In this document: positions 3,771 through 56,501 of the stretch, in pieces
How the letters are laid out: each line of letters starts with the position of its first letter
Position numbering within the stretch: position 1 is the stretch's first letter
NCBI GenBank assembly: GCA_003056085.1
Contig: LSNK01000005.1
Span: forward strand, 10,122 to 74,121
Direction of reading: 5' to 3'
Length of the DNA stretch: 64,000 nt
Source: Parcubacteria group bacterium M6-OD1-1
GTDB lineage: Bacteria; Patescibacteriota; Minisyncoccia; GWC2-36-17; M10-OD1-4
Translations under genes and position numbers: made by a program
Notes under the pieces: generated by a model
Databases searched by the model: none
Seen by the model: the letters and a program-made list of their open reading frames with translations, nothing else
Told to the model about the DNA's origin: nothing

Positions 3771-3847
3771 TCCCGAAAATTTCTGAAGTAAAGTAAAGTG
3801 AAATTTTCGAGGATTCCGTAAATTATATAAAAGTTCATACGCAAAGA

Positions 3848-3919: not shown

Positions 3920-3941
3920 CTTTGCGCAGGAATTTACGGAG

Positions 3942-6351: not shown

Positions 6352-6734
6352 AATTATTATAATTGATAGTCGTTCTTATCGGGGAAATCTCTATAAAAAA
6401 TAATTAGGTTGAGTAACTTAAAACTGCATAATAAGAATTACGCTTTTTTAAATCTATTATTCAGATTAGTAGTATTTAATTGAGTTTTTTGTAAAATTTT
6501 CATCTAAAAAACAATTTATCAACCATAATCAGAAAATTCCGAGGAACTTATATCAAAATTGAAATTAACTTTTATACTAAAACGATATCAGAAATGGCAT
6601 TTTTTGTCAAAATAAATATTTAAATTCTATATAATGAACAATTATATTTTAAAACTTGAGATTAATTGTTAAAATCCATTTTTACTTGTTGTCCGTTTCA
6701 GGTTACTGATTACTTTTTATCTGATATAATAATA

Positions 6735-6772
6735 GGAGCGTGGAAATTAACCTTATCCAAATTTCACGCTCC
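6735..6772 (+). promoter_or_regulatory. stable stem-loop 4 nt upstream of the xer start codon
   Basis: GGAGCGTG...CACGCTCC 8-bp GC stem extended by gaaatt/aaattt. Confidence 0.3.
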
Positions 6773-6776
6773 CAAT

Positions 6777-17494: not shown

Positions 17495-17626
17495 TTATTT
17501 ATTATAATTTAAAACATAATTAATATCGTTTAAATTTGATATCTAAATATGTAGGCTAACTTTTTACTTAAATTTTAAAAAGCAGTCTAAAATTTGGGTG
17601 TCAGAAAAAAACGATTATTTAAAATA

Positions 17627-26103: not shown

Positions 26104-26242
26104 GAATAAAAATTAAAAACTTTAATTTTTGAGCACAGGTCGCAGCTAAAAAAGCGGAGTGAGGTTGAGCCGTACTTACAGCTACGGTGAAACTAAGCGA
26201 CAATTTTTTAGCAAGAGATGCGCCAAAAATAAAAGTTTTACT

Positions 26243-38285: not shown

Positions 38286-38294
38286 TGGTATAAT
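38286..38294 (+). promoter_or_regulatory. extended -10 promoter element TGGTATAAT, 36 nt upstream of the first gene of the cluster
   Basis: Perfect TGnTATAAT. Confidence 0.45.
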
Positions 38295-38330
38295 TAAGCC
38301 AAATTAATTTAAGTTGAATTTTTAAAATAA

Positions 38331-39311
38331 ATGACGAATATAAAAAATAAAGTTTCAAACCAAAAACGGAATGTAATCATTCCTATTGTTTTAATATTGG
38401 GAGTATTTATCGGCGGGGTTGTGGTTTTACAAACAAAAGGCATAGGAGCAAAAGTCTTAAAAGAAGGCAAAAAAATATTTATACCGGTAGCGGAAGAGCC
38501 TGACGCAGACCCTGACAACGATGGACTAAAAAATTGGGAAGAAGAAGTATACAAAACCGATTCCAGAAAATATGACACGGATGGCGATGGCTATTCCGAT
38601 GGAGAAGAAGTTTTATCCGGATACGACCCTACAAAACCGGCACCAAATGACGCACTTGAAGGCACGGATACATCTATCCCCAGACCAACACCTAAAAATT
38701 TAACAGATTATTTATCGCAACTGATAGTTTCAAAAGTAGAGTCGGGTGAGTTTAAGCCAATTTCCAACGCTGACACGGCGCCTGATTCTGTCTTGCTTAA
38801 TAATGAAGATATATTTAATGAAGTTTTAACCAATATATCAGAAAAAGCAAAAACAGAATTTATCTTGTCAGAAATACCGGACTCTGAAATAAAAATATCA
38901 AAAAACCCAACAACAAAACAAGAAGTAGTGGCTTATATCACTAAAATGTCTGCCGTTTTGGATGATGATAAAATCTTTTCAGATACAGGGCTTTCAGAAG
39001 CTAAGATAATAGAAGACGCTGTAAACACAAAAGACACCAGAGATATCGAAAAAATTATTAATTTTTACCAAGTAGGAATTGAAAAAATAAAAAAAATAAC
39101 TGTTCCTTTGGACTTTGTAGATATACACAAAGAACAAATAGCTATTTTTGAATTCACAAAAGAAATATTAATTGCAATAAAAAACTTTGAAAATGACCCC
39201 GCAATGGCGGCGGCGGCGGCAGAAAGATACCCTGAATTAAAAAACATGCTGGAAAGTTTTACAAATAAACTTATTGATAGATTAGAAAAATATTCAGATG
39301 ATAAAATTTGA
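38331..39311 (+). CDS. membrane-anchored secreted protein with thrombospondin-type-3-like Ca-binding repeats
   Basis: N-terminal TM anchor, DADPDNDGLKNWEE and DTDGDGYSDGEE (DxDxDG) repeats. Confidence 0.5.
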   Translation: MTNIKNKVSNQKRNVIIPIVLILGVFIGGVVVLQTKGIGAKVLKEGKKIFIPVAEEPDADPDNDGLKNWEEEVYKTDSRKYDTDGDGYSDGEEVLSGYDPTKPAPNDALEGTDTSIPRPTPKNLTDYLSQLIVSKVESGEFKPISNADTAPDSVLLNNEDIFNEVLTNISEKAKTEFILSEIPDSEIKISKNPTTKQEVVAYITKMSAVLDDDKIFSDTGLSEAKIIEDAVNTKDTRDIEKIINFYQVGIEKIKKITVPLDFVDIHKEQIAIFEFTKEILIAIKNFENDPAMAAAAAERYPELKNMLESFTNKLIDRLEKYSDDKI

Positions 39312-42300
39312 GAAAATATTTAAGCCAATATCGTCGTTTTTAATTGCGGTGCTTATCGTAAACTCTTTTTTGTTTGTTATTCTTGCCAATCCAAATCCAG
39401 CACAGGCACAAATGGTAGTTACTGATCCGGGAAATACAGCTGCAAGCGTCTCACAAACCGCAAAACAGACTGCTTGGGAAGCCATAAAACAAGCATGGGA
39501 TAAAAGTGAGGGTGTATTAACTGGAGCATACAGAGCAACCACTGAAGCATTTAACCAATGGGATAAATCAACAGCTATACTTGCAAGAGTCTCTTACGCT
39601 CTTATGTATGTAACTATAAATGTCATGCTGACTAAAATGACCAAGGATATCGTTGGTTGGTTAGATGGCGGGGCGAAAGGCTCTCCAAAAATAACTACAG
39701 ATTTCGGACAGCTTTTTGAAGATTCTCTTGACTTGGCAGCCGGAGCGGTGATTGGAGATATATTAGGTCTGAGAAATGGCGAACTTTGTAATCCCGGTTT
39801 TTTAAAAGGCTTTGTTGTTCTTTCTTTAGACAGAGTTCAGCAGCCGACGTTTAGAGAAAGAATACGGTGTTCATTTTCTGATATAGGGGAAAGTTTGGAT
39901 GATTTTAAAAAAGATTTCTCCAAAGGAGGTTGGGGAGGATGGATAAGATATTCAAGAAGAGCTAATAACCAGATTGGCAATCTTATTGAAACCCAAAATG
40001 AATTAAGAGAAAGACAAATTGCAAGCGTCAAAGCAACTGAAGAAGAATCAAAAACAGGAAGAGGATTCAGCGCACAAAAAGTTTGTAGAGTAACCAGGGA
40101 TATTAATTTTGTTGATGAAACTGGAGCATTCAGCGGCGAAGCGGAAACTTTTAAAGTTGGTGATGCAGACGTCGCCGGAACACTTTCTCTCGGTTCAAAA
40201 ATGAAAGATATAATGGGAAATTACAACTACACTAACTTGGAAGACTTTAAAATATTTTGGAATAATCGCGGCGGATCATTTAAGTGCAAGATAGAAACTC
40301 CTGCAAGCGCGATATCAGAACTTGGCTCAAAAATATTGAATGCTCCTTTCGACACATTAAATAAACAACTTCAAGCGTCAGCTGAAAATTTAGGAAAAAG
40401 TGCTCCTGCAATCTTTAGACCATACCTAAATGCAATATCAGCATCAGCGTTAAATTTATTAATCAGAAAAGAAAAAGGACTTGTTTCAGGAGTATTCGGA
40501 CAAAGAAAATCAAGAAAATATAGAAGGGCAAACACCAGTGCTTTCCAAAAATACTCAAAAACGCTTTATTCAAGTCGTAACCTACTCGGCTCTGCAAACT
40601 CTTTAAGAGACTCTCTTTTAAGAACGCTTTTAAACTTCAGTCTTTTTGCCGGGACACTTACAACTTTAACAGAAAAAAAGGGGGTGCTTTGGAAACCCCC
40701 TATATTAGTTAGTAATTTACAGCATGGCGGACTTATTTGGGGCGCAGGATTTGGAGGAGGAAGGACAGACAACAGAAATATTTGGATGGGTCAGGGCGAT
40801 CCGGGGGATCCGAATGACATAAGCTATCCTGAAGACCCCTCCAGAATAGACACAAGAATATTTGATCAAAGGATAAAAGACAGAGTAAAATCTGTTGTGG
40901 AAAATAAATCTGCAGAAGGATATCCTCTTCTCCCTCCTGCGGGAACCATCAACACATCTGCAAATATTTGCGGGGCTTTTTCACAAGAATTGGAAGTAGA
41001 TGGACAAGATCTTAATTTTACACTTTCAGAGAGAATAGGATATGTAGCACTCGCAGGAGTTTATATTGATGGAGGACTTGATGAAGATGGAGACCCAACA
41101 ACACAAACGACAGCAGCCATAGGAAGCATATACACCTCTACTCCTTCTCTTCTTACCGGTAAAAACGGCTGGTTCGGAGATGTTAGAGTTTCAGCATACA
41201 ACGACAGCGGAAGAACAAGAGAAGCAGGAGCAGGATTTGAACCTTGGCCTGACAGATATGTCAGAGAAAATATTTCTACAGGGGAAGTCGTTACTTTTAT
41301 AGACATGGGAGATTTTCAAAATGGATTTATAGAAGTTGGAGTTCCACCAACATATACAGACCCAGAAACCAGAGCAACCGACCCTCAGATATACGCTTCT
41401 GAGCTTGGTGATATTTCTATTATTCCAAACAGTGATGGTTCTGCGACGGCATTAGAGTCTCAAAATGAAAGAGTTTATTCAAGGAACGCAAACACAGGAG
41501 AACCCGATAACACCTCAGGAAATGTTTATTATATAACAGGAAGCAGAGGAGTATACCAAGAAATAACCCGAGGAAGCGCATTTACTTTACCACCTCTTTC
41601 AAGAGTTTGTGTAGATGATAGACCTGCTTTATATTATACAAGAACAGGTGATGTTGGATCTGTTTTCGCAACAGGAGTTGGTCCGTTTCCAACTGGCAAT
41701 ACTGGTGGTGGATGGCAATGTGGCGGGTCTACATATGGTGTAAAAATAGCTGATATTTTTTGGGACAGAATATCCACCAACCCAACCCTATCAGCTTCTG
41801 TAAATTTCGATGGATGTGGACGTGGAGATATATTAAATATAAGTTTTGATAGAAATACTGCTGTGGGAAGCATTGCTAATAGCGACAATGGCACCCTCGT
41901 TTATGGAAATAGAATATGCACAGCACCAGGTGCACAATCAGTTAGAATAAGTAGTTCGCTCATTATATTACCTGACGACCCAATGGTGGGAATCCCGGCT
42001 AATGTAGCAAATTCTAAATATCAAATAAAATATTTCAGTCCTTCATTTGAAGGAGCAACGACTATAATAGAAAACAACAGAACAATCATTGTTTATGACG
42101 ATTTTAGAGATCCTGCAACAAATTTTCCTACAACAATGATAAGCGCAACCACAACGATTGATAATATTAATCCGTACAAGATGCGGCTCGTGGACTTTTA
42201 TAGAGAAATAAATGAGTTAACAAATGAATTTCTTACAAAAATAAGAGTAATGATTGGCTATCCTGAAAAATCAGGAGATCCCGTAGGACAGACAAAAAAA

Positions 42301-44394
42301 ACTAATCTTTCAGGACTTGCAGATCAAATAGGATCTACGCCTGATGATGATCCTTATTATATTTCCGTGGCCGATGTTTTATCAAAATACAATAATCTAT
42401 CTGCACTTTATCAAGCGTTGTTTGCCGGAGTTACAAGCGAATCGGCCCTTGAAGGAATTGACCCTGACTTTGAAATTCTTAATAGCACAGAAACAAATAT
42501 AAAATTTGCATTAATAGGTGAAAGATGTCCTACAGTCCCTCCTTCCGTTGACTCAAACCCAGCACTGCAAACAGGATGTCAAGCGTTGCCTTCCGGTGAA
42601 TACAATATGGCAAAAAGATTTATTTTTGAAGAAAATCCACAGACAGGATTTGCCACAAATCCATTTACCGGAACAAACAGCAATGTTATTGCCGGAGTTT
42701 TAAACTTAAATGAAATGACCAGACAGCTTGCAACGCTTCCACCTGACAAAAACATAATAAAACTAATAAGACTCAGACAAATATTGGAACAACTTCAAGT
42801 AAGCCCTCAAGCTATAACGTTTTATGGTGAAACTCGAGCAGATGATGTTACATTTAGTCCGGACGACCCATTAAATCCAATTCATTCATTAACCGCCACA
42901 TCAACAACAGGAAACATACTAACCTCAGACTCTATACAAATAAGCCTGCGAAATTATCCCGAAATAGAAGCTTTCCTAAATGACATACAAACAGCAAATA
43001 AACCAATATCTGACCTTATAGAGGCTTATGGATTTTTACCAACAAATACAAGAGAGTCTTATCCTCAAATAAGTGGAGACCTTGAGGATATATTTCCTGA
43101 AATAACAACACAAATTCAAGACAAATTAAGAGATGTGTTTTTAAAAAGAGTTGAACTTGAACTTGCAAAAGCGGAGAAAAAAGCGATAAAAAGAGTAGAG
43201 GATTTTATATATTTTGCAAGAGATTTAAATCCTACAGTACAAATCCAAGTTCCTAAGAACTTTCAAAATATTGTATCCGGAGGAGTTGACATGAAGATGG
43301 GAGATGTAGAAAGCTTAATAATGAGAATAATATCCTCACGCGCAGCAGACCCTCCTTTAAACTTAACTCCTTCTGAAAACTGCATAGGACTGACTGGTGA
43401 ATGGCTTGATTGCGCGTCTCCTGAATATTATTTAAGAGGATTTAGAATTAATCTCTGGGATAATATCTCAGCTGAAGGCACCGGCTCGTTGGCATTGGAA
43501 ACTGGAAACACAACAGAAAACAGCGATCAACGAATGAAAGTAATAGCTGTGAGAAAGGCCTTAATGGCAGGAATAAGAAAAAAAATAAAGATATTTAACA
43601 AATTTATGGGTGTTAATATAAACTCTACTGAATTTGAAAATAAAATAAATTATTATCAATTAGATGTTAATACAGACACACATACAATGGGGCAAGATGG
43701 TCATGATGGAACAAAGCCCCACATACACATAACCGAAGACTACCCTCAAATTGATATTAACGGTGATGGGGACATGACTGATCCGGGAGAATACAAAGAT
43801 GGCTGGGATAGAAAAATAGAAAAAGGATTAGAAGATGTATACATTTATTACACGGGTTTTTATAATTTAGAAAAACTCGGTGTTAATAACCCTGGAACAA
43901 GATTAAGTACAGGAGAATATATTTACAACGACATTAAAACATCAATGAATAAAATGACGAAAGATTTAACCTTGCTTCAAAAAGAATTTGAAAAAATAAA
44001 AGATGAATTTACAGTTGTCGGATCTTCCAATGTATTTTCCTTAAAAGACCAATTAAACGATATGACTAAAAATTTAAAAGTTATGGAAAGCTCTCGGGAT
44101 GAAGCCTTGGCTTGTGTTGATGCGAGCGTCAGTATAGGAAGTGATAATTTTCTTGCAATATTGGTTGGAGCAGCTGGAGGAGCTGGAACTGCAATAGCAT
44201 ATACAATAAATTCAGTCATAGGAAAATTTACGGGAATGGCTTCGGCGTTCACTTTTAGTCTTTTTGGAGGAGGAAGGGCAAGAAGAGCAGCTGAAGCAAG
44301 AGCAAGAAACATAGCCAATAAATGCGGGGATGCGGCAACAAGATACAATAAAGCGTTAACAGATATTTCAGATAACTTTATCTGCGGACGTTAG
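39298..44394 (+). CDS. giant (1698 aa) exported surface protein with C-terminal Gly-rich hydrophobic anchor
   Basis: N-terminal signal/TM (SSFLIAVLIVNSFLFVILANPNPAQAQ), about 1600 aa of Gly/Thr/Asn-rich extracellular sequence, C-terminal AILVGAAGGAGTAIAYTINSVIG hydrophobic segment. Overlaps the upstream gene by 14 nt. Confidence 0.55.
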   Translation: MIKFEKIFKPISSFLIAVLIVNSFLFVILANPNPAQAQMVVTDPGNTAASVSQTAKQTAWEAIKQAWDKSEGVLTGAYRATTEAFNQWDKSTAILARVSYALMYVTINVMLTKMTKDIVGWLDGGAKGSPKITTDFGQLFEDSLDLAAGAVIGDILGLRNGELCNPGFLKGFVVLSLDRVQQPTFRERIRCSFSDIGESLDDFKKDFSKGGWGGWIRYSRRANNQIGNLIETQNELRERQIASVKATEEESKTGRGFSAQKVCRVTRDINFVDETGAFSGEAETFKVGDADVAGTLSLGSKMKDIMGNYNYTNLEDFKIFWNNRGGSFKCKIETPASAISELGSKILNAPFDTLNKQLQASAENLGKSAPAIFRPYLNAISASALNLLIRKEKGLVSGVFGQRKSRKYRRANTSAFQKYSKTLYSSRNLLGSANSLRDSLLRTLLNFSLFAGTLTTLTEKKGVLWKPPILVSNLQHGGLIWGAGFGGGRTDNRNIWMGQGDPGDPNDISYPEDPSRIDTRIFDQRIKDRVKSVVENKSAEGYPLLPPAGTINTSANICGAFSQELEVDGQDLNFTLSERIGYVALAGVYIDGGLDEDGDPTTQTTAAIGSIYTSTPSLLTGKNGWFGDVRVSAYNDSGRTREAGAGFEPWPDRYVRENISTGEVVTFIDMGDFQNGFIEVGVPPTYTDPETRATDPQIYASELGDISIIPNSDGSATALESQNERVYSRNANTGEPDNTSGNVYYITGSRGVYQEITRGSAFTLPPLSRVCVDDRPALYYTRTGDVGSVFATGVGPFPTGNTGGGWQCGGSTYGVKIADIFWDRISTNPTLSASVNFDGCGRGDILNISFDRNTAVGSIANSDNGTLVYGNRICTAPGAQSVRISSSLIILPDDPMVGIPANVANSKYQIKYFSPSFEGATTIIENNRTIIVYDDFRDPATNFPTTMISATTTIDNINPYKMRLVDFYREINELTNEFLTKIRVMIGYPEKSGDPVGQTKKTNLSGLADQIGSTPDDDPYYISVADVLSKYNNLSALYQALFAGVTSESALEGIDPDFEILNSTETNIKFALIGERCPTVPPSVDSNPALQTGCQALPSGEYNMAKRFIFEENPQTGFATNPFTGTNSNVIAGVLNLNEMTRQLATLPPDKNIIKLIRLRQILEQLQVSPQAITFYGETRADDVTFSPDDPLNPIHSLTATSTTGNILTSDSIQISLRNYPEIEAFLNDIQTANKPISDLIEAYGFLPTNTRESYPQISGDLEDIFPEITTQIQDKLRDVFLKRVELELAKAEKKAIKRVEDFIYFARDLNPTVQIQVPKNFQNIVSGGVDMKMGDVESLIMRIISSRAADPPLNLTPSENCIGLTGEWLDCASPEYYLRGFRINLWDNISAEGTGSLALETGNTTENSDQRMKVIAVRKALMAGIRKKIKIFNKFMGVNINSTEFENKINYYQLDVNTDTHTMGQDGHDGTKPHIHITEDYPQIDINGDGDMTDPGEYKDGWDRKIEKGLEDVYIYYTGFYNLEKLGVNNPGTRLSTGEYIYNDIKTSMNKMTKDLTLLQKEFEKIKDEFTVVGSSNVFSLKDQLNDMTKNLKVMESSRDEALACVDASVSIGSDNFLAILVGAAGGAGTAIAYTINSVIGKFTGMASAFTFSLFGGGRARRAAEARARNIANKCGDAATRYNKALTDISDNFICGR

Positions 44395-44489
44395 TTGATG
44401 GGTTGCAAACATTAGATTGTAGGTGATAGGCAATAGATGATAAAAATTATCCGCTATTTAACCCAAACAATAATTTAAAAAACCATAAA

Positions 44490-46478
44490 ATGAAGTTTTT
44501 AAACTTAAAATTCATCATTTCTTTCCTGCTTGTTTTTGTAGTGATTTTTATTAGTAAAACTTCTTTTGTGCATGCCGATGCGATAGATGAGCTTGTAATA
44601 AACCCTGCGAACAGCCTTTTGGAGCTTATTTTAAAAGGCCTCAGTTGGATGTTGGCATTTTTAGGAACGCTTGTTGATGATGTTATGCAGCCGCAATCAA
44701 TTCTTCAAGCCGATATAGTAAAAACAGGATGGAGAATAACTCGAGATTTTGCAAATATGTTCTTTATTTTAATACTCCTTGCTATTGCTTTAAGCTTTAT
44801 ATTATTCCCGCGCTTTCAAATAAAACAAGCTTTGCCAAGACTTCTCTTAATTGCCTTACTTATCAATTTTAGCTTGCCAATCGCAGGAATATTTATAGAT
44901 TTTGCCAATATATTTACTAAATATTTTTTGGATCAAGCAGCTACCGGAGGAAACATAAGTGAGCTCATTGCAAGCCAACTGAATATTACGGCTATTCGTG
45001 ATGTGTCAGAACAAGCATTAACTGCAAATATCGGCAATACTCCGGGTCAAATATTTTTATCATTGCTTTTTGGCATCGTTTTTGTATCCGTAGTTATTTT
45101 TATATTTATCGCATTAGCTTTTATGTTTTTAATAAGAAATATCTATCTTTATATACTTCTTATTATTTTGCCGCTTGCGCTTGTGGCGTCTATTCTTCCT
45201 TCGGGAAGAAGCTATTTTTCGCAATGGTCTCATAAATTTTTTCAGTGGACATTTTTTGCGCCAATCGCAACATTTTTCATCTTTTTATCTATGGTTTCAT
45301 TTAGCAGTATTATAAAAGCTGACGCAGCACCCCTTGCTACAGACGCAGGTGTAGGCTTTCTTGCAGGAACATATGATTACATAATAATACTTCTACTCTT
45401 AATGGGTTCTTTGTTTGCCGCAAACTCATTAGGAGTTCAAACTGCCGGAGTAACTAACAAAATGATGAAATATGGAGGAAAAGCCCTGCGTGGAGGCTGG
45501 TCCGGCGTTAAAAAGGTTAATCATGGAATACAATATTCAAGAGAGAGATTTGGCAAACCAGCGTCACAAAAAGCAAGAGAAACATCTGCTGAATATTCTG
45601 CAAAAGGCGGCTTAATAAACACTCTTATAGGCAAATATCATGACACGAGAGCCGACAAATTAGAAGCACATATACCTGATGGAGTCTTGTCAAAAGAAGA
45701 AAAAGAAAAAGCAAAGCGGCAAGCAAAAGAAAACCCAGACCAACTATTAGGAAGAATAAAACTACCTGGACTAAGCGCAAGGAAGAAAACAGAACTGCAA
45801 ACGATAGCTGCCGAGGAAGGAATATTAAAAGAAAAAGATGCAAGAGGTATCGTTGATCCGAAAAAAACAAAGAAGATGCTTGGAGATGTGTATGAAAAAG
45901 CTTTAAAAATAGGAAATAAAGAACTTGTGGAGGCTATAAGTAAAAATTCTCCGGCACTTGTTTTAGAAAAACTTGAAGAAAAAATTGATGGAATGAATTC
46001 ATTAGAACTCCAGAAAAAATACGGAGTAAATACTAAAGAAAAAGCTAAGAAGGCCGTTAGAAATAATCTATTCAGAAAAATTAATACTGACGATATAACT
46101 AAAATGTGGGATACGCTTGACAAATCTTCACGAACAGAGTTAGTAGCCAATAAAGTTGCCAGCGGAATGTCTATAGATCAAGTTAAAAAAATTCATGATT
46201 CCGGAATGGCTCCTGAATTTTCTAAAGAATTTGAAAAACTTGCAACCGGACAATACAGAAGGCAAAGAAAAGATTTACATGATGTATTTGAAGAAAATAC
46301 TTCCATAATTCGGTCATTTCAGAGTGCTCCTGCAAAGGCAATGTTTGGAGAAGAAGGCTTAACCGAGAGACGAACAACAACACAAGCTGCATGGAACCAG
46401 AGAAAAGAAAAGAAGGAAGGGGAAGGAAAAGCAAAAAAAGAAGAAAAAGAAAGAAAAGCGGAAGAAACGATGATATAG
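44490..46478 (+). CDS. polytopic membrane protein, VirB6/TrbL/PrgH-like candidate, with charged C-terminal domain
   Basis: At least 7 predicted TM helices in the first 330 aa, then a hydrophilic Lys/Glu-rich cytoplasmic tail of about 330 aa. This is VirB6-family architecture. Confidence 0.5.
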   Translation: MKFLNLKFIISFLLVFVVIFISKTSFVHADAIDELVINPANSLLELILKGLSWMLAFLGTLVDDVMQPQSILQADIVKTGWRITRDFANMFFILILLAIALSFILFPRFQIKQALPRLLLIALLINFSLPIAGIFIDFANIFTKYFLDQAATGGNISELIASQLNITAIRDVSEQALTANIGNTPGQIFLSLLFGIVFVSVVIFIFIALAFMFLIRNIYLYILLIILPLALVASILPSGRSYFSQWSHKFFQWTFFAPIATFFIFLSMVSFSSIIKADAAPLATDAGVGFLAGTYDYIIILLLLMGSLFAANSLGVQTAGVTNKMMKYGGKALRGGWSGVKKVNHGIQYSRERFGKPASQKARETSAEYSAKGGLINTLIGKYHDTRADKLEAHIPDGVLSKEEKEKAKRQAKENPDQLLGRIKLPGLSARKKTELQTIAAEEGILKEKDARGIVDPKKTKKMLGDVYEKALKIGNKELVEAISKNSPALVLEKLEEKIDGMNSLELQKKYGVNTKEKAKKAVRNNLFRKINTDDITKMWDTLDKSSRTELVANKVASGMSIDQVKKIHDSGMAPEFSKEFEKLATGQYRRQRKDLHDVFEENTSIIRSFQSAPAKAMFGEEGLTERRTTTQAAWNQRKEKKEGEGKAKKEEKERKAEETMI

Positions 46479-46506
46479 ATGTAAATTAAAACATCAAATT
46501 ACAAAA

Positions 46507-47385
46507 ATGCAAAAAATACCACAAGAGCAAGCTAAAAAAAGATATTTTTCTCTTTCAGACTCACTGCAAAATGCAATGTTTTCAGAGAAAAGTTCTGATG
46601 CTGTCAGAAAAACAGCGATTTTTGGTAATATTGAAAATAAAGTTTCCAGACTCGCAGAACTTACTGGATACGTTTTGCTTGGATATTTAAATCCTATAGA
46701 TTTTTCCAAAGAAATTCAGGAAGAATTTAACATTTCAAGAGAAACAGCAGAACAAATAGCGAGTCAACTTGATGCTGAGATTTTTAGCCTTGTAGACTCT
46801 GATTTAAGAAAGTTGTATCCACCGAGAATAAAAACTCCGACTGCAATATCGGGCGGGTTTATTCCCGATCAAAACAAACCATCAGATAACTCAAACGAAC
46901 GAACCCCAGAAAAAAAATTCAGTGAATTTGAAAAAAGATTTTTAAAAGACAAAACAGCCTCTTCTGAACCCACACCTAAAAAAAATCACTTGGAGACTCG
47001 GTCTACAAATGATTGGAAGCCTGGTCTTCAAACGAGAAAAGAAATGCAGGCAGGAGAAAAACCAATTCAAGCTCCATCTTTTAAAAATGCTCCGAGAAAT
47101 CAAAAACCCTTAGAAAACGAAGCACCTAAAAGCACCTCCTACGCTCCTATTGGAGCCTCTGGAGGAAAACCCAAACCTATTGAGAACGCAGAAGATATTC
47201 CGGAAATAAAACCTGTTATTCCTTTGCCAACATTTATGCAGTCGCAATTTCAGCCAAGAAAAAAACTTGATGAAAGCGACTACAAAGAAAATATTCCCGC
47301 TCCCGTTAAAAAATCAGAAGACGAAGAAGATAAAAAACCACAGCCGAAAATAGAAGGAAATATAATTGATCTTCGCGATCTTTAA
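46507..47385 (+). CDS. hypothetical protein with Pro/Lys-rich low-complexity C-terminus
   Basis: 292 aa with no TM. The disordered C-terminus may be a linker or peptidoglycan-spanning segment. Confidence 0.4.
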   Translation: MQKIPQEQAKKRYFSLSDSLQNAMFSEKSSDAVRKTAIFGNIENKVSRLAELTGYVLLGYLNPIDFSKEIQEEFNISRETAEQIASQLDAEIFSLVDSDLRKLYPPRIKTPTAISGGFIPDQNKPSDNSNERTPEKKFSEFEKRFLKDKTASSEPTPKKNHLETRSTNDWKPGLQTRKEMQAGEKPIQAPSFKNAPRNQKPLENEAPKSTSYAPIGASGGKPKPIENAEDIPEIKPVIPLPTFMQSQFQPRKKLDESDYKENIPAPVKKSEDEEDKKPQPKIEGNIIDLRDL

Positions 47386-47443
47386 TTAGATTATGAAGGA
47401 TAGATTACAAATTACTATCACCTAAAAACCCTAAACTAAGAAA

Positions 47444-47893
47444 ATGAAACAATTTCAAGTTCCACAATTTATTGATGTAGAGGATAAAATATTAGGCTTT
47501 GTCACCATGAGGCAATTTTTTATAATGCTTATACCTCTTACTGTTGCCGGAGTCTTATATTTTATTTTGGATATATGGCTTATGCTGATAATAACACTGC
47601 CGGTAACCGGAATCGCTGTTGTATTTGCTTTTTATAAACCAAATGGTATGAAATTTTCAAGATTTCTCGGTTCCTTTCTAAGCTACACATTCAAGCCAAG
47701 ATTATATGTATGGAAAAGAGAAGAAAAAACAACATCAGTGGAAATATTAAGAGAAGGGGAAGAAAAACTAAAAAACCCCAGAGGATTAAAAAGTAAAAAA
47801 GGAAGCATTGAAACTGGAAGTAAAGTAAACGAGGAAGAATTAAAAAAACAAGGAGGAGAAAGTGAATATTTAGATGAAATACTTAATGAATGA
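47444..47893 (+). CDS. PrgI/TcpE-family (VirB3-like) small two-TM T4SS protein
   Basis: QVPQFIDVEDKILGFVTMRQFFIM followed by two TM helices. This matches the PrgI family that precedes VirB4 in Gram-positive-type T4SS. Confidence 0.6.
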   Translation: MKQFQVPQFIDVEDKILGFVTMRQFFIMLIPLTVAGVLYFILDIWLMLIITLPVTGIAVVFAFYKPNGMKFSRFLGSFLSYTFKPRLYVWKREEKTTSVEILREGEEKLKNPRGLKSKKGSIETGSKVNEEELKKQGGESEYLDEILNE

Positions 47894-47903
47894 GCTTATT
47901 AGG

Positions 47904-47979
47904 AATTAGCTTCTTAGCTTTTTAGGAAAAACCCTGAAAAACTAAGAAGTCAAAAAGCTAAAAAGCTAAAAAAATGGCT
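47904..47979 (+). repeat. 76-bp element copy 1 (A/T-rich, AGCT-containing imperfect palindrome), ending in ATGGCT start of the VirB4 N-domain ORF
   Basis: aattagcttcttagctttttaggaaaaaccctgaaaaactaagaagtcaaaaagctaaaaagctaaaaaaATGGCT. Identical apart from 1 nt to 48626-48701. Confidence 0.85.
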
Positions 47980-48612
47980 CAACCAAACGCACAAGCAACA
48001 CAACAAATAGTAGACATAGAAGCTATTAGAGAAAGTGTAATAATCCTAAAAACAGGAGCATTACGTGCTATTTTGATGTGTTCATCTGTTAACTTAGCTT
48101 TAAAATCACAAGATGAACAAGACGCATTGATATTCCAATATCAAAATTTTATAAATGGATTAGATTTTCCGATAGAATTTGTTGTACATTCAAGAAAATT
48201 AGACATAACAGACTATATAGCAGAAATAAAAGGACATTTGGCCAAGCAAAAAAACGAACTTTTAAAGATTCAAACTGAAGAATACGTAGAATTTATTGAA
48301 AGCTTTGTCGGCATGCAAAATATTATGGCAAAAACATTTTATGTTACAATACCTTTTTCATCAGAAGAAGACACTAAACAAGGATTTTTAGATAAAATAT
48401 TCTCACCAAAAACATCATCATTTGTTAAAATGTCAGATGAAGAATTTAAAAAATACAAAAACCAACTTTGGCAAAGAGTAGAAAATGTTATATCCGGACT
48501 ACAAAGTGTCGGGGTAAGGTCAGAAGCGCTTGATAACGAAGAATTAAAAGAATTATTTTTCAATATTTATAATCCTGGAGAAACAGGGAAAGGCGTTGTT
48601 CAAAAACTTTAA
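47974..48612 (+). CDS. VirB4/TrbE-family ATPase, detached N-terminal domain (212 aa)
   Basis: IVDIEAIRESVIILKTGALRAILMCSSVNLALKSQDEQDALIFQYQNFINGLDFPIEFVVHSRKLDITDYI matches the conserved N-terminal region of Gram-positive VirB4 homologues (PrgJ/TcpF/ConE type). Confidence 0.6.
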   Translation: MAQPNAQATQQIVDIEAIRESVIILKTGALRAILMCSSVNLALKSQDEQDALIFQYQNFINGLDFPIEFVVHSRKLDITDYIAEIKGHLAKQKNELLKIQTEEYVEFIESFVGMQNIMAKTFYVTIPFSSEEDTKQGFLDKIFSPKTSSFVKMSDEEFKKYKNQLWQRVENVISGLQSVGVRSEALDNEELKELFFNIYNPGETGKGVVQKL

Positions 48613-48625
48613 TCAGCTTCTTAGA

Positions 48626-48701
48626 AATTAGCTTCTTAGCTTTTTAGGAAAAACCCTGAAAAACTAAGAAGTCAAAAAGCTAAAAAGCTAAAAAATTGGC
48701 T
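48626..48701 (+). repeat. 76-bp element copy 2, ending in TTGGCT start of the VirB4 ATPase ORF
   Basis: Direct repeat of 47904-47979, with ATG changed to TTG. Confidence 0.85.
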
Positions 48702-50477
48702 TTAGATCAGAAAAAACAAGAAAATATAAGCGTTCCTCAGATGTCAGAACCTGCGGGTTTTAAAGATGTGGTTGCACCCTCTGCTATTCAAATAGAAAGC
48801 CGTTATATTCAGTTGGGGGATAAATTCTTGCGTACTCTATTTTTATATTCATATCCAAGATATTTAAATACAAATTGGTTTGCTCCTGTAATAAATTTGG
48901 ATAGATTTTTTGATATTGCGATACACTTTCATCCGGTTGATACCGCAACTATAATGAAAAAATTAAACAGGAAAGTAACATCCATTGAGGCTCAATTAAA
49001 CGAAAGAACGGAGAAGGGGCTTATTCGTGACCCGATACTTGAAACTGCACTTCATGATTTGGAAGACTTAAGAGACTCTCTGCAGCAAGCAACTCAAAAA
49101 CTTTTTAGAGTAGGAGTTTATATAACAATTATAGAAAATAGCGTTGAAGAGCTAAATAAGGCGGAAAGTGAAATAAGGGGAATATTGGACGCAAGAATGG
49201 TACTGACTAAAAATGCAAATTTTCAGCAAGATATAGGATTTATGTCTACTTTACCATTAGGCAGAGATAAGCTTGAAATTCACTCAAACTTAAACACAGG
49301 ACCTGCTTCTACTCTTTTCCCCTTTGTGTCTGCCGACCTTACCTCAAATAAAGGAATTTTATATGGAATAAACAGACACAACAACAGTCTTATTCTTTTT
49401 GACAGATTTTCTCTTGAAAACGCAAACTCTGTTATTTTTGCAAAATCAGGCTCAGGAAAAAGTTACACTGCAAAACTTGAAATATTGAGGTCTTTAATGA
49501 CAGGAACGGATGTCATTATTATAGATCCTGAAAATGAATATAAGTATCTTACCGAAACAGTGGGGGGTTCATTTTTTAGAGTTTCTTTAAATTCACAAAA
49601 TCATATAAATCCATTTGAGCTTCCAAGGCCCATTGATGGAGAATCGCAAGCCGATGTTTTAAGGTCAAATATTATAAATCTTGTTGGAATGATGCGCCTC
49701 ATGCTTGGAGAACTAAATCCGGAAGAAGATGCGATTATAGATAGAGCGCTTGCAGAAACTTATGCCTCAAGAGACATAACACCTGATGTTGATTTTTCAG
49801 ACAAAACACCTCCGACACTTTCTGACTTTCAGTCTATTTTAGAAAATATGGAAGGAGGAAATTCTCTTGCAAAAAGACTTGAAAAATACACAAAAGGCTC
49901 ATATGCAGGATTTTTAAATAATCAGACAAATGTAGATATGCAAAACAAACTGATTGTTTTCTCAATAAGAGACATGGAGACAGAACTGAGGCCTATCGCT
50001 ATGTATCTTATTATTAGATATGTCTGGAATATTGTTAGAGCTGAACTTAAAAAGAGAATTCTTTTGGTTGATGAAGCATGGGTCATGATGCAACATGAGG
50101 ACGCAGCTTCATTTTTATACGGAATAGCAAAAAGATGCAGAAAATACTACTTGGGACTTACCACAATAACCCAAGATGTAAATGACTTTTTAGGCTCCAA
50201 GTACGGGAAGGCAATTTTGACGAATTCATCACTTCAACTTCTTCTGAAGCAATCTCCGGCAACAATAAACACGGTTAAAGAATCTTTTAATCTTTCTGAG
50301 GAAGAAAAATACCTTCTTTTGGAGTGCGGAGTTGGAGAAGGCATCTTTTTTGCAGGACTAAAACATGCCGCCATTAAAGTTATTGCATCTTACACCGAAG
50401 ACCAAATAATAACATCAAATCCTGAAGAAATACTTGCAAGAGAAAAAGAACAAGCCGACCTTGAGAACACCGAATAA
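48696..50477 (+). CDS. VirB4/TrbE-family T4SS ATPase, middle and C-terminal ATPase domains (593 aa)
   Basis: Walker A GSGKSYTAKLE, Walker B LLVDEAWVMM, VirB4 middle-domain pattern (YIQLGDKFLRTLFLYSYPRYLNTNWFAPVINLD). TTG start inside repeat copy 2. With the 212-aa ORF it totals 805 aa, the typical VirB4 length. Confidence 0.8.
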   Translation: MALDQKKQENISVPQMSEPAGFKDVVAPSAIQIESRYIQLGDKFLRTLFLYSYPRYLNTNWFAPVINLDRFFDIAIHFHPVDTATIMKKLNRKVTSIEAQLNERTEKGLIRDPILETALHDLEDLRDSLQQATQKLFRVGVYITIIENSVEELNKAESEIRGILDARMVLTKNANFQQDIGFMSTLPLGRDKLEIHSNLNTGPASTLFPFVSADLTSNKGILYGINRHNNSLILFDRFSLENANSVIFAKSGSGKSYTAKLEILRSLMTGTDVIIIDPENEYKYLTETVGGSFFRVSLNSQNHINPFELPRPIDGESQADVLRSNIINLVGMMRLMLGELNPEEDAIIDRALAETYASRDITPDVDFSDKTPPTLSDFQSILENMEGGNSLAKRLEKYTKGSYAGFLNNQTNVDMQNKLIVFSIRDMETELRPIAMYLIIRYVWNIVRAELKKRILLVDEAWVMMQHEDAASFLYGIAKRCRKYYLGLTTITQDVNDFLGSKYGKAILTNSSLQLLLKQSPATINTVKESFNLSEEEKYLLLECGVGEGIFFAGLKHAAIKVIASYTEDQIITSNPEEILAREKEQADLENTE

Positions 50478-50555
50478 TAAATGGTACAATATAATTAGAA
50501 TATAGAATCTTGAATTTAGAATATAATTTTTATAACTCTAAATTTTAAATGCCAA

Positions 50556-51581
50556 ATGCTGCTAAAAACAATAAAAGTATTTTTAATAACCTCGTTTGTC
50601 GGCTACTCATTTATACTTGCCGGTTATTTTGCTTTTGCTCAACAAAATCTAAACTCCGACTTTTCAAATCAAATAACAAACTTAGAAAATGAATTGTTAG
50701 CCCCGAGCGTTGAACTTGATTTATCATCGAGCGGGAGATTAGGTCAAATAGCTTCAATCTCTGCGTTAACTGACAATATAGATGACAGCACTGTTAGTTT
50801 TCTTTGGTATTTAGATGATGTGTTTGATCAAAAACAATCCGGAAAATCCAAAACAAAGTTTTCCTTCAAAACAACAAGAGCAAATCACGTTGTAAGACTT
50901 GTTATAATGCAAAGAAAAGTCAAAATAACAGAAAATGCTATTTTGGTAAGTTCATATAATGTTTCTTTGGCTTGGAATGCAGAAACTTATGTTCCGCCAG
51001 AATACGAAGGTAAAGCATTACCATCAAGAGGCAGCAAGGTAACCGTAACGGCAATCCCTGACATTAAAGGATATGATTCTAAAGACTTGCTTTATACTTG
51101 GTATCTTGATGCGGAGTCACGTGTAAGAAAAGTTTTAGGAGAAGATGAATTTTCATTTTTTATAACAAAAAGCGTTGATTTTATACCTGTATTTGTTGAA
51201 GTGTCCAATCTTTCTGGCTCTATAGTTGTAAGTCAAGCTGTATCAATCCCTGTTGTCCGGCCATCTGTTTTAATTTATCACCAACTTTCAGACAAAACTG
51301 CAAAAACAGCTGTACGTAAGCTTTTTATCGCTCCGGGAGAGTCCAAAAAAATAACTGCAAAACCCTTTAATTTTCAAGCAAAAAGTATAATTGATTTTGA
51401 ATACGAATGGGAATTTATAGGAAAGAAAGCAAGTGGGGAAAGAAAAAATCCCAACTTACTAACACTCATAATACCTGAAACATCGTCTCTTGGAATAAAA
51501 AATTTAATGTTAAAAGTTATAAATAGAAAATTCATCAAAGAAAGAACTTCGGCTATTTTGGTGGTTAATATAACTAAGTAA
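50556..51581 (+). CDS. hypothetical exported protein, N-terminal TM anchor plus beta-rich domain
   Basis: 341 aa. A VirB8-like role is possible from position but not supported by motifs. Confidence 0.4.
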   Translation: MLLKTIKVFLITSFVGYSFILAGYFAFAQQNLNSDFSNQITNLENELLAPSVELDLSSSGRLGQIASISALTDNIDDSTVSFLWYLDDVFDQKQSGKSKTKFSFKTTRANHVVRLVIMQRKVKITENAILVSSYNVSLAWNAETYVPPEYEGKALPSRGSKVTVTAIPDIKGYDSKDLLYTWYLDAESRVRKVLGEDEFSFFITKSVDFIPVFVEVSNLSGSIVVSQAVSIPVVRPSVLIYHQLSDKTAKTAVRKLFIAPGESKKITAKPFNFQAKSIIDFEYEWEFIGKKASGERKNPNLLTLIIPETSSLGIKNLMLKVINRKFIKERTSAILVVNITK

Positions 51582-51660
51582 TAGTTGCTGGATTATAGTG
51601 GTTAGATTATAAATTTATAAGTTATTAATTAGGAAATAAAGATATTTAATTATTGCATTA

Positions 51661-52536
51661 ATGAAATATAAAATAATTATCTTAATATTGCTTTCTGTAG
51701 TTTTATTCAACGGACTTTTGGACTTTGTTCAAGCACAGACAACTTTTGAAGTGGGTATTCCCGGGCAAACGAGACCCGGAGAACCATTTCCAACCTATAC
51801 GGATACTGAGGGTAGGGAAATAGTAGACATAGAAAGATACATAGCCTTTTTATACATGTTTATGATAGGACTTGTCGGTATTGCCGGTTTTGCCTCTTTG
51901 GTTTGGTATGGTATTGTTTGGATATACTCCGGTATAGCAGAAAAAAAATCAGAAGCAATGGAAGGCATTAAAAATACATTAATAGGCATATCGCTCGCTT
52001 TGGGATCTTTTGTAATATTAAACACCATAAATCCCGCTCTTGTAACATTAACCTCTCCTAAGTTTCCTGAACTCACGGCAAAACCGGCAAATGAGATGCC
52101 GAAAGAAATTGCTGTTAATAACAGAATAGCTGGAAACTATTATTATAAATATAAAGATGACACTTTTCAAAACAGAGTTGTTTACAGATACAGCAAACCA
52201 TTTTCCTCATTAAGTCTTTGTAATAATGCGAGAGATACATTTACTGAAATTTGTGATGTTGATAATGATATTAATTGCGATTCTGACACCCCTGATCCCG
52301 AAGCATTTCCTTGTGAAAGTTATAAAATAGGTGAAAAAAATAATTATTTTTATTGGGCTAAAAATAAAGTTACCAATGAAATTTATGTTAGCTCGGGATT
52401 CACCGATCAAAATAGCTGTGAGAAAACAGCAAATGACTACGGAATAACATCGCTTTACAAAATAGTAAACAAACCGGCAAGCGATGTTAATTGTCAATCT
52501 GGAGAACCACCATCAAATGCAATACCTTTACCCTAA
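51661..52536 (+). CDS. hypothetical exported protein with a hydrophobic helical hairpin and a Cys-rich C-terminal domain
   Basis: Signal peptide. Paired hydrophobic helices separated by AEKKSEA are reminiscent of VirB2-type pilins. C-terminal domain with 8 Cys. Confidence 0.35.
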   Translation: MKYKIIILILLSVVLFNGLLDFVQAQTTFEVGIPGQTRPGEPFPTYTDTEGREIVDIERYIAFLYMFMIGLVGIAGFASLVWYGIVWIYSGIAEKKSEAMEGIKNTLIGISLALGSFVILNTINPALVTLTSPKFPELTAKPANEMPKEIAVNNRIAGNYYYKYKDDTFQNRVVYRYSKPFSSLSLCNNARDTFTEICDVDNDINCDSDTPDPEAFPCESYKIGEKNNYFYWAKNKVTNEIYVSSGFTDQNSCEKTANDYGITSLYKIVNKPASDVNCQSGEPPSNAIPLP

Positions 52537-52548
52537 TAAATTAAAATC

Positions 52549-53676
52549 ATGACAAAAAAAACAAAAATTTCATTATTTGTAATATTAGCAGCTCTTGTCG
52601 TAGGGTCTATTTTAGCTTATTATTTTCTTGCAGAAGGCAGACCTATAAAATTAAAAGAAAAAGGAGAAGTCAAAAAAGAAACTACCGTCATTACTCCAAA
52701 AACTGTTGAAAAATTACTTCAGATAACCGATGAAAACACTGTTTCTCCCATTATTGATGAACAAAAAAATACGATTAAATACATAACAAAAACTGATGGA
52801 TCTCTTTATCAGTCTGATTTAAACGGAGAGAACAAAGTAAAAATACCCTTTGTAAGCTTAGGCGGACTTATAAAAATAATTTGGTCTCCCGATCAGGAAA
52901 AATTTATTAATATTTATTCTGATGCTTTTGGCATTAAAAGGTTCTATTATGACTTAACATCAAAACAAATCGTTCCTTTAAATAAAAGCATCACTTGGGT
53001 TGATTACTCAAAGACAGAAGACAAGATAGCGTATCATTATTATGATGCAACTCAAGATATAAATTCAATCGCAATAGCAAATGCAGATGGATCTCTTGCT
53101 CAAAGCATACTAAATACAAGACTTAAAGATGTTAGATTAAAATGGGTAACAAATGATAAAATTGTGATATCAACAGCACCATCAGGACTTGCACAAAACA
53201 TCTTATATTACACAGATCCAAAAAATCCTAAACTAATAAAAATATTGAGTGGGATTTACGGACTAACATCCAAATGGTCTTCTGACGGATCAAAATTTCT
53301 TTTTTCCCAAACCGACAAAGACGGAGCAAACTTAACGCTTAAATCAGCGGACGGAAATGGTCTTAATATTTTAGACACGAAAATTTCAACACTTCCTGAG
53401 AAGTGCGTATTTTCGGAGGACTTCTTAAACGCGTACTGCGCAGAACCGACAAAAATACCAAAAGACGCAATAATGCCGGATGATTATTATAAAAAAATAT
53501 TTTCTTCAAATGACAAACTTTGGAAAACAAACCTTAAAACAAACAAAAAAGACTTGGTTTATCAATTTGGTGAAAATATAAATTTTGATTTGAGTAATCT
53601 TATACTTACAAAGGATGAAAAATATTTATATTTTATAAATAGAACTAATGGATTTTTATACAAACTGGAACTCTAA
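52549..53676 (+). CDS. membrane-anchored beta-propeller protein (TolB/WD40-like repeats)
   Basis: N-terminal TM. Repeated W-S-x-D-G/SPDG-like blades (IWSPDQEKF, KWSSDGSKF). Confidence 0.45.
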   Translation: MTKKTKISLFVILAALVVGSILAYYFLAEGRPIKLKEKGEVKKETTVITPKTVEKLLQITDENTVSPIIDEQKNTIKYITKTDGSLYQSDLNGENKVKIPFVSLGGLIKIIWSPDQEKFINIYSDAFGIKRFYYDLTSKQIVPLNKSITWVDYSKTEDKIAYHYYDATQDINSIAIANADGSLAQSILNTRLKDVRLKWVTNDKIVISTAPSGLAQNILYYTDPKNPKLIKILSGIYGLTSKWSSDGSKFLFSQTDKDGANLTLKSADGNGLNILDTKISTLPEKCVFSEDFLNAYCAEPTKIPKDAIMPDDYYKKIFSSNDKLWKTNLKTNKKDLVYQFGENINFDLSNLILTKDEKYLYFINRTNGFLYKLEL

Positions 53677-55020: not shown

Positions 55021-55074
55021 TAATTTTAAATTTATTCTTTTTAATATTTGGAAGCAAGGCTTCCAAATATTAAA

Positions 55075-56388: not shown

Positions 56389-56501
56389 ATAAGGTGAGTA
56401 TTACTTAAAAAATTAAAATTACAAAGTTTAAATGCCAAAATATATCTTGATTATTTAGGTTTTAGATTTGGATTTTGGTATTTAATATTTTAAAATTGTG
56501 T

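Follow-up and report, generated by a model that had tools for sequence, protein, structure and literature searches.

A chromosomal, origin-proximal gene cluster in a Parcubacteria bacterium probably encodes a non-conjugative type IV secretion system of the Patescibacteria type

We analyzed a 64,000-nucleotide (nt) stretch of DNA from Parcubacteria group bacterium M6-OD1-1 (GenBank assembly GCA_003056085.1, contig LSNK01000005.1, positions 10,122 to 74,121 of the forward strand), the whole of which is hereafter called the window, and focused on a cluster of ten genes (g1 to g10) at positions 38331-53676 of its + strand. We hold with good confidence that this cluster encodes a chromosomal, origin-proximal, non-conjugative type IV secretion system (T4SS) of the Patescibacteria type in a Parcubacteria/Paceibacteria arrangement, most likely a contact-dependent conduit between an epibiont and its host. 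Systems of this kind were already described between 2023 and 2025; the cluster is a further example, not a new machine. The locus is nevertheless a clean and complete Paceibacteria example with a defined ten-gene module, to which we add, modestly, a conserved Paceibacteria accessory set (g1, g2, g4, g8, and g10), a family of g2 N-terminal domains, and a duplicated 91-nt leader.

Analysis of the open reading frames (ORFs) of the window gave ten uninterrupted genes on the + strand, in agreement with a sequence-only reading of the same DNA, which had listed ten co-directional genes of these sizes (lengths are in amino acids [aa]; TM, transmembrane):

38331-39311, + strand: g1, first gene of the module; membrane-anchored protein with a TSP3 repeat, 326 aa (Pfam TSP3_bac, E = 6.5e-10).
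39298-44394, + strand: g2, exported protein, 1698 aa, with a cleavable-looking signal (…AQA, followed by Q).
44490-46478, + strand: g3, VirB6/TrbL-like polytopic protein, 662 aa, with a TM domain at about residues 1-335 and a K/E-rich hydrophilic tail of about 330 aa.
46507-47385, + strand: g4, soluble protein, 292 aa, without a TM segment, between VirB6 and VirB3.
47444-47893, + strand: g5, PrgI/VirB3-like protein, 149 aa (Pfam PrgI), with a two-helix membrane hairpin.
47974-48612, + strand: g6, TrsD-like protein, 212 aa, the VirB4 N-terminal domain as a gene of its own according to family models.
48696-50477, + strand: g7, C-terminal two-thirds of a VirB4 ATPase, 593 aa, with a TTG start (NCBIfam CD1110, Pfam P-loop_TraG).
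50556-51581, + strand: g8, membrane-anchored immunoglobulin (Ig)/PKD-like protein, 341 aa, with about three beta-sandwich repeats and an N-terminal TM segment.
51661-52536, + strand: g9, putative VirB2-like T4SS pilin module, 291 aa, with a signal peptide and two TM helices at residues 59-130.
52549-53676, + strand: g10, last gene of the module; membrane-anchored protein, 375 aa, with an N-terminal TM segment.

From g1 to g10, the intergenic distances are -14, 95, 28, 58, 80, 83, 78, 79, and 12 nt. Hydropathy analysis placed N-terminal anchors or signals in g1, g2, g8, g9, and g10, a polytopic domain in g3, and a helical hairpin in both g5 and g9. The sequence-only reading had counted four further exported or membrane-anchored proteins; this is borne out for g8, g9, and g10, whereas g4 is devoid of any hydrophobic segment. 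Six of the ten genes can be assigned (g1, g3, g5, g6, g7, and g9), and at least a fold or a family was obtained for eight of the ten once relatives were used, so that the earlier statement that most components have no recognisable family did not stand.

The secretion core is formed by g5, g6, and g7. The g7 product matched the NCBIfam CD1110 family with 405 bits (cut-off, 325) over positions 185-728 of the 752-position model, as well as Pfam P-loop_TraG (E = 2.5e-27), and its translation contains, at residue 249, the Walker A motif AKSGSGKS and, further downstream, the Walker B-like sequence LLVDEAW. The g6 product was colinear with the full TrsD/TraD model NF041427 (E = 3.1e-7), at 30 bits, below the curated cut-off of 200, and matched positions 2-126 of the CD1110 family (E = 3.5e-5). 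For g5, the Pfam PrgI match (E = 9.3e-11; 42.6 bits; gathering threshold, 27) was accompanied by a match to TcpE (E = 4.3e-4), and the TM hairpin is located at residues 16-66. Besides, the three products were colinear with NF045975, the VirB3-VirB4 fusion of a Mycoplasma integrative and conjugative element (ICE), at model positions 23-106 (g5), 102-242 (g6; E = 1.3e-9), and 293-893 (g7). At least 584 relatives of g7 were found in bacterial and archaeal contigs representing one genome per species, and nearly all of the best 80 carry the label Patescibacteria, Parcubacteria, or Saccharibacteria. The top match, with 81% identity, is a metagenome-assembled genome of Candidatus Azambacteria; the best relatives being this lineage and other Parcubacteria, the reduced-genome host from the candidate phyla radiation (CPR) proposed in the sequence-only reading is confirmed.

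Synteny was examined, as that reading had suggested, in 80 related loci, namely, the best 80 of the at least 584 g7 relatives, with gene families defined by iterated profile searches on their ORFs. The numbers of loci containing each family were 79 (g7), 75 (g6), 73 (g5), 58 (g4), 44 (g9), 43 (g3), 40 (g8), 31 (g1), and 24 (g2). The g10 family was counted in 50 of the 80 loci by iterated search, a number that includes unrelated proteins of about 205 aa with a TM helix and an NTF2-like domain; full-length g10 relatives occur in about 31 loci. In about 25 loci with enough flanking sequence, the order ksgA-g1-g2-g3-g4-g5-g6-g7-g8-g9-g10 is conserved, and yidC and dnaA lie downstream of the cluster in 24 and 21 loci, respectively. 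The order KsgA-g1...g10-YidC-DnaA recurs across Parcubacteria/Paceibacteria genomes, and such conservation in dozens of independent genomes makes it clear that the genes do not stand together by chance.

Other subtypes were seen among the related loci, including pilin-pilin-g5-g6-g7 in Moranbacteria-like loci, and g3-g4-g4-g5-g6-g7 followed by the protein of about 205 aa with a TM helix and an NTF2-like domain. In Falkowbacteria-like loci, VirB4 is followed by a protein of about 205 aa consisting of an N-terminal TM helix and an alpha+beta domain (L046:11745-12371, L034:11755-12378, L070:7660-8271, and L079:6020-6634), and one sequence of the alignment containing the proteins of this size matched NTF2_YvbJ. 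Judging from their sequences, these proteins look like candidates for the "missing" VirB8-like component.

The VirB6-like polytopic protein of the sequence-only reading was recovered by two routes. By itself, g3 of the window matched Pfam TrbL below threshold (7.8 bits; E = 3.3), in a weak alignment over the same region as its homologues, which scored 28.8 and 26.1 bits (43 and 46% identity to g3) and 23 bits (60% identity) against a gathering threshold of 25.9. Residues 1-340 were modelled with AlphaFold2 on the basis of 65 sequences; the model had a predicted local distance difference test score (pLDDT) of 82.4 and a predicted template modeling score (pTM) of 0.77. When this model was searched with Foldseek against 350,542 PDB chains, the top 8 matches were all entries of the R388 TrwJ/VirB5-TrwI/VirB6 stalk, with probabilities of 0.92-1.00 (1.00 for the top five), E values from 3.8e-3, TM scores of 0.41-0.53 normalised by target length, and 17-20% identity over about 200-280 columns; the matches below them were generic helical bundles. 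Chains F-J of 7o3v are read here as VirB6, not VirB5, because they are 260-272 residues in length and all five of them were matched. Searched against the PDB by sequence, g3-family profiles gave coiled-coil noise from the tail or nothing, and VirB6 was found by the structure search only. Family and model together thus predict g3 to be a VirB6 of the "extended VirB6" type with a hydrophilic tail.

The VirB2-like helical hairpin noted in the sequence-only reading corresponds to the two TM helices of g9. Although g9 of the window matched Pfam T4SS_pilin below the gathering threshold (E = 0.0027; 18.2 bits; threshold, 26.6), 43 of the 46 members of the family collected from the syntenic position matched this model, the best with an E value of 9.2e-22. 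Weaker resemblances were found to the pilin-like model NF045849 of the Mycoplasma ICE (E = 0.007) and, with the family profile, to Agrobacterium VirB2 (E = 0.07). The C-terminal domain of g9 comprises 160 aa with 6 Cys residues. In some g9 relatives a hydrolase stands in place of this Cys-rich domain, i.e., NlpC/P60 in 3, VanY in 2, and SLT/SLT_3 in 1-2. Fusion of a VirB2-like hairpin to a VirB1-like enzyme is an uncommon domain arrangement; it suggests that the pilin hairpin may be able to act as a T4SS-associated anchor for cell-wall enzymes.

Five accessory proteins (g1, g2, g4, g8, and g10) are conserved in the lineage, and g1, g2, g8, and g10 among them are exported or membrane anchored. 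The largest, g2, consists of a VirB5/TrbJ/DUF4141-like motif at about residues 19-80, a conserved Cys-containing N-domain at about residues 90-400, and a long lineage-specific remainder. Against DUF4141, g2 of the window reached an E value of 4.9e-5 and 23 bits (threshold, 30), and against VirB5 (PRK13860), 0.0034; among 25 family members, DUF4141 was matched by 3 (best, 4.3e-8), TrbJ PRK13874 by 2 (best, 8.6e-6), and TrbJ_Ti by 1. This resemblance spans about 60 residues, partly over the signal peptide. In BLASTP, the alignment to the broader family was limited to the N-terminal region of about the first 290 residues, and a family alignment extending to about residue 335 showed conservation of Cys164, Cys191, Cys263, Cys330, a GGW motif, and an NN motif. 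A HMMER scan of 1.84 billion cluster representatives returned 2,372 relatives of the N-domain at E ≤ 1e-3, and in the best-scoring ones the domain is N-terminal in proteins of about 300-1900 aa. The C-termini of the family vary in sequence and length. The sequence-only reading had described g2 as an exported protein with a C-terminal Gly-rich anchor; the signal was confirmed, whereas for the anchor hydropathy analysis gave only a weak Gly-rich hydrophobic segment (residues 1619-1637), which is absent from the broader family. A weak match of the C-terminus to the SseD translocon (E = 0.0016) was set aside, the segment in question being absent from the broader family, and full-length g2 searched against the PDB gave only a chance-level cathepsin-like stretch (E = 0.017) without the catalytic Cys region.

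In the loci examined, the g2-family gene immediately precedes that of VirB6, and in the conjugative transposons of Bacteroides the gene for the DUF4141 protein is a neighbour of traJ (VirB6) (PMC10434189). We regard g2 as a candidate surface, tip, or host-recognition component. A more detailed proposal, which we put forward tentatively and consider rather unlikely as a whole, is that the g2 family is the missing VirB5 equivalent; its N-domain would dock on the VirB6 platform or else on the VirB2-like filament, and its variable C-terminus would be a host-recognition or membrane-insertion tip; the family would then be a host-range determinant of Paceibacteria epibionts and, together with g1, g4, g8, and g10, would form a Paceibacteria-specific architecture absent from the published survey texts. 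If the g2 family does provide the tip or host recognition, its variability could explain host specificity across a large uncultivated radiation.

As the sequence-only reading had it, g1 is a Ca-binding TSP3-repeat protein: it has one Ca-binding bacterial TSP3 repeat, is anchored by a TM segment near its N-terminus (residues 12-40), and ends in a helical domain without a known family. The g1 family in the 31 related loci is typically located directly between ksgA and g2. The g4 product starts with a helical domain of about 110 aa, followed by a disordered linker rich in P, E, and K, and ends in a short conserved motif. In the family alignment this motif mostly reads DPYREP(I/V)E; the window protein and a few relatives have N(I/V)(I/V)(D/N)L(R/K)D instead. 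No Pfam match was found for g4, and its family profile retrieved nothing from the PDB; the family occupies the same position, between VirB6 and VirB3, in all 58 loci. From its sequence, g4 looks cytoplasmic, and its C-terminal motif looks like a docking peptide for some partner.

The g8 family directly follows VirB4 in 40 loci; its profile matched the Ig-like T4 Hoc protein (E = 1.3e-4), and family members matched BiPBP_C (4), PKD (3), and Ig_3 (2). We regard g8 as a candidate envelope-spanning scaffold. The beta-propeller of the sequence-only reading is probable rather than established. The match of g10 itself to the TolB propeller is weak (E = 0.039), and members of its family matched PD40 (2; best E value, 7.4e-9), DPPIV_N (1), and PG_binding_1 (3); g10 is therefore probably a TolB/PD40-type beta-propeller. 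Candidates for host contact are the giant g2 with its variable C-terminus, the Ca-binding g1, the Ig-like g8, and the propeller protein g10.

Among Patescibacteria, the T4SS has been found essential for epibiotic growth in the one species tested, Southlakia epibionticum, in which the system (SEML1_0006-0019) is most like Gram-positive conjugative systems and has pilins, but neither a coupling protein nor a relaxase could be recognised (Wang et al. 2023, Cell, PMC10633639). The VirB4 proteins of Patescibacteria form a monophyletic clade nested in the mating-pair formation type MPF_FATA; TrsD, PrgI, VirB6, and VirB2-like genes are found near virB4, relaxases are almost absent, Paceibacteria loci lie close to dnaA, ksgA, and rnpA, and VirB8 homologues are rare outside the class ABY1 (Quiñonero-Coronel et al. 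2025, Microb Genom, PMC12102498). A 2025 review counts the Patescibacteria system among the T4SS newcomers (PMC12857230), a 2024 perspective, in which its role is called "completely unknown", names effector delivery and nucleotide acquisition as alternatives (PMC11665869), and a 2026 preprint describes tubular structures at the epibiont-host interface that are possibly T4SS pili (10.64898/2026.06.21.733656).

The cluster shares with the Patescibacteria-clade systems a VirB4 that descends from MPF_FATA, a TrsD-like gene next to it, PrgI/VirB3, VirB6, and a putative VirB2-like pilin, the lack of a relaxase and of a nearby type IV coupling protein (T4CP), a chromosomal position close to dnaA and ksgA, and a CPR host. 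Unlike the loci of Saccharimonadia/Microgenomatia, which have arrays of 2-11 pilins, it has only one gene with a pilin domain, to which an extra domain is fused, and unlike that of S. epibionticum, it has no peptidase or lysozyme directly downstream of virB4. It also differs from the published description of the clade in its five conserved accessory genes (g1, g2, g4, g8, and g10). The terms TSP3, thrombospondin, and propeller are absent from the text of PMC12102498, in which VirB5 is mentioned only for one MPF_T-type outlier genome; since the accessory terms do not appear there, we consider the accessory set and the g2 family to be small additions.

With the MPF_FATA systems (pGO1/pSK41 trs, pCF10 prg, CTn2 CD1110, and the Mycoplasma ICE Mbov_0395/0397), the cluster has in common a CD1110-type VirB4 and PrgI, the division into TrsD and VirB4 as in pGO1, and the lack of a VirB7/9/10 outer-membrane core; as described above, g5-g6-g7 are colinear with the VirB3-VirB4 fusion of the Mycoplasma ICE and g9 weakly matches its pilin-like protein. 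In contrast to the MPF_FATA systems, it lacks a relaxase, a T4CP, a hydrolase of the PrgK/TraG type, a VirB8-like protein of the PrgL/TraM type, and a PrgB-type adhesin, has a putative VirB2-like pilin module, and is not on a mobile element. In comparison with the MPF_T stalk of R388/Agrobacterium, the g3 model matched only chains that appear to be TrwI/VirB6, and g2, the start of which is weakly VirB5/TrbJ/DUF4141-like, directly precedes VirB6, as in the order virB5-virB6. The VirB5 fold is a three-helix bundle with an appendage, of about 220 aa, whereas g2 has 1698 aa, of which about 60 N-terminal residues are alike, and g3 carries an extra hydrophilic tail of about 330 aa. No outer-membrane core components were found among the cluster proteins. 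With a VirB4 of the CD1110/MPF_FATA type, PrgI, a TrsD-like protein, VirB6, and a putative VirB2-like pilin, the apparatus is of the Gram-positive/CPR style that the sequence-only reading had recognised, and the interpretation given there is supported overall but was already matched by published work (Wang 2023; Quiñonero-Coronel 2025).

By analogy with R388 and with the Gram-positive MPF_FATA architecture, g3, g5, g6, and g7 would constitute a cytoplasmic-membrane translocon and its motor, to which g9 would add a pilin-like membrane or filament element. The Ig repeats of g8 and the propeller of g10 may serve as a scaffold for passage through the cell wall, and the Ca-binding g1 and the giant g2 would be displayed on the surface, where together they would touch the host cell. 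Such a conduit would carry macromolecules, either in protein export or in the uptake of nucleic acids or nutrients from the host, rather than serving conjugation. The same options as those named in the sequence-only reading (host attachment, DNA uptake, or effector delivery) are left open in the literature (PMC10633639, PMC11665869, PMC12102498).

Several observations weigh against this interpretation. The cluster has no linked gene for a substrate, an effector, or DNA processing, so that transport itself is deduced. None of the ten cluster proteins matched VirB8, PrgL, TraM, or NTF2 in searches with Pfam and NCBIfam-type models, and none has a hydrolase domain, so that a VirB1-like peptidoglycan hydrolase is missing inside the cluster. 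The g3 and g9 proteins of the window score below the Pfam thresholds and are assigned via relatives and, for g3, the model only. The 160-aa extra domain of g9 is not found in canonical VirB2 pilins, which makes pilus polymerisation uncertain. The model of the g2 N-domain was of low confidence and matched no VirB5 structure, and a VirB5 fold was not found for it. Finally, most T4CP homologues of Patescibacteria are encoded far from virB4 (PMC12102498), and a coupling protein may be encoded elsewhere in the genome.

Within the interpretation as an epibiont-host conduit, one sub-case is a dedicated machine for the import of DNA or nucleic acids, like Helicobacter pylori ComB or archaeal Ced, feeding a cell without nucleotide synthesis; we think this improbable. 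The T4SS has been proposed as a candidate route of nucleotide acquisition (PMC11665869), and a 2026 preprint reports feeding on host RNA as well as a monophyletic VirB4 clade (10.64898/2026.06.21.733656). A ComM-like gene (26159-27763) and PNPase (17594-19714) are also present in the window. The g7 product does match the archaeal DNA-import ATPases CedB (E = 6.1e-8) and CedD (E = 1.2e-7) weakly, but these matches are limited to the shared P-loop region and are far below the 405 bits obtained with CD1110. Moreover, neither a ComEC-like channel nor a DNA receptor is present in the cluster, and no experiment has tied the Patescibacteria T4SS to uptake.

The VirB4, PrgI, TrsD, and VirB6 proteins of the cluster are homologous to conjugation proteins of Gram-positive bacteria and Mycoplasma, and a tyrosine recombinase gene is present in the window (6666-7676), as would be the case if the cluster were, or had until recently been, an ordinary ICE or an integrated plasmid with a T4SS that passes DNA to other cells. 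This recombinase, the sole one in the window, lies 30 kb off amid ClpP, trigger factor, and RNase Y, a setting that would be expected for a chromosomal Xer-type enzyme. Pfam scans of 40/45 non-nested ORFs of at least 110 aa in the 64-kb window detected no relaxase family, and neither a VirD4/TcpA coupling protein (no match above threshold to T4SS-DNA_transf or TraG-D) nor VirB11 or a second secretion ATPase was found in the window, in which Walker A motifs occur in four proteins, i.e., the ComM-like protein, UvrD, g7 (VirB4), and DnaA. The cluster itself thus has no relaxase, VirD4, or integrase, in accordance with the sequence-only reading. No long direct repeats flank it, and its GC content (0.30-0.40) is not sharply different from that of its flanks. 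Furthermore, 99.3% of the VirB4 proteins of the clade have their closest homologue in their own class, which points to vertical inheritance (PMC12102498). The same chromosomal slot, ksgA...yidC-dnaA, is occupied in many divergent genomes; this fixed position rules out an ordinary ICE, in line with the earlier argument against a conjugative element, and renders transfer of DNA by any such mobile element or recent remnant very improbable.

The two VirB4 ORFs, g6 and g7, are in different reading frames with a gap of 83 nt between them, and several canonical components are absent from the cluster, which might be taken as the decay of a non-functional T4SS that has lost VirB8, VirB1, and T4CP. However, an N-part with an in-frame stop and a separate C-part ORF, both conserved, were found in 77 of the 77 related loci where both parts were located, with identities to the related loci of 34-71% for g6 and 57-81% for g7, and therefore the split VirB4, correctly noted in the sequence-only reading, is not damage or a pseudogene. 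An alternative genetic code or a frameshift behind the split was likewise rejected, given the different frames and the in-frame stop in 77/77 relatives. The split also corresponds to TrsD/TrsE, the natural arrangement in pGO1-type systems, and TrsD is the T4SS component found most often in Patescibacteria (PMC12102498). Neither the Walker A nor the Walker B-like motif is damaged, none of the ten ORFs is interrupted, and the homologous system is essential in Saccharibacteria (PMC10633639), so that degeneration has hardly any probability at all.

In addition to the ten genes, we found a duplicated noncoding element around g6:

47889-47979, + strand: 91-nt hairpin leader, copy 1, filling the g5-g6 gap and ending in the g6 ATG.
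48611-48701, + strand: 91-nt hairpin leader, copy 2, filling the g6-g7 gap and ending in the g7 TTG.

The copies form a direct repeat with 96% identity, each beginning right behind a stop codon, reaching into the start codon that follows, and holding a strong hairpin. A 21-nt core of the leader occurs twice only in the 64 kb (0.04 expected), and the RNA fold of positions 48595-48710, covering copy 2, had an energy of -28.7 kcal/mol (z = -3.49), with none of 200 shuffles being as stable. The leader had no Rfam match, and none of the 80 related loci contains it; its only occurrence in metagenomes was on one 6,972-bp contig (L081), with two copies 722 nt apart and a 99%-identical g3, i.e., in the same lineage. 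Judging from its sequence and fold, the leader may act in mRNA processing or stability or in translational control, or it may be a small inserted palindrome.

Upstream of g1, a candidate promoter was noted:

38286-38294, + strand: extended -10-like motif TGgTATAAT, 37 nt before the g1 ATG, a motif match only.

The sequence-only reading had placed the start of the cluster behind an extended -10 promoter. The motif is indeed present, whereas promoter-like sites in the cluster region were no commoner than in shuffled sequences in a consensus scan (64 versus 56.8 ± 8.0 expected), and with the scan at chance level, the motif at 38286 is to be read as a sequence match only.

Elsewhere, the window contains housekeeping genes, i.e., ClpP, trigger factor, NusA, RNase Y, PNPase, the CCA-adding enzyme, the ComM-like gene, UvrD, KsgA, YidC, DnaA at 60058, and DnaN at 61730. 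The cluster is thus situated on the chromosome of a CPR bacterium at a distance of about 6 kb from dnaA. An Rfam search of the cluster and the whole window retrieved two tRNAs only.

Convergent with the end of the operon, positions 53740-57944 of the - strand encode a polysaccharide flippase together with two membrane proteins of 426 and 437 aa, which are paralogues and Wzy_C/O-antigen-ligase-like. Ligase-like genes are also found directly 3' of the cluster in 4-6 related loci (L003, L041, L053, L063, and L002), and these neighbours may be involved in surface or pilin glycosylation. On the other side, 9 kb upstream of the cluster, the - strand encodes a LysM (x2) and Peptidase_M23 hydrolase (27874-28971), and 12 related loci have M23 homologues no more than 10 kb from virB4. 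This hydrolase may be the VirB1-type wall-opening enzyme that is absent from the cluster.

Upstream of ksgA, positions 32135-35479 encode a K/E-rich protein of 1114 aa with one central hydrophobic segment and no Pfam match, followed just upstream of ksgA by a Fic and winged helix-turn-helix protein of common architecture (35708-36739). Both proteins were considered as T4SS effectors and rejected, as linkage to the T4SS was found in none of the 80 related loci, and they are probably unrelated to it. Lastly, an exact 36-nt copy of the 5' part of tRNA-Gly(TCC) (3735-3770 = 3847-3882) lies 112 nt upstream of the gene (3848-3920), and it may be a truncated tandem copy or a recombination scar.

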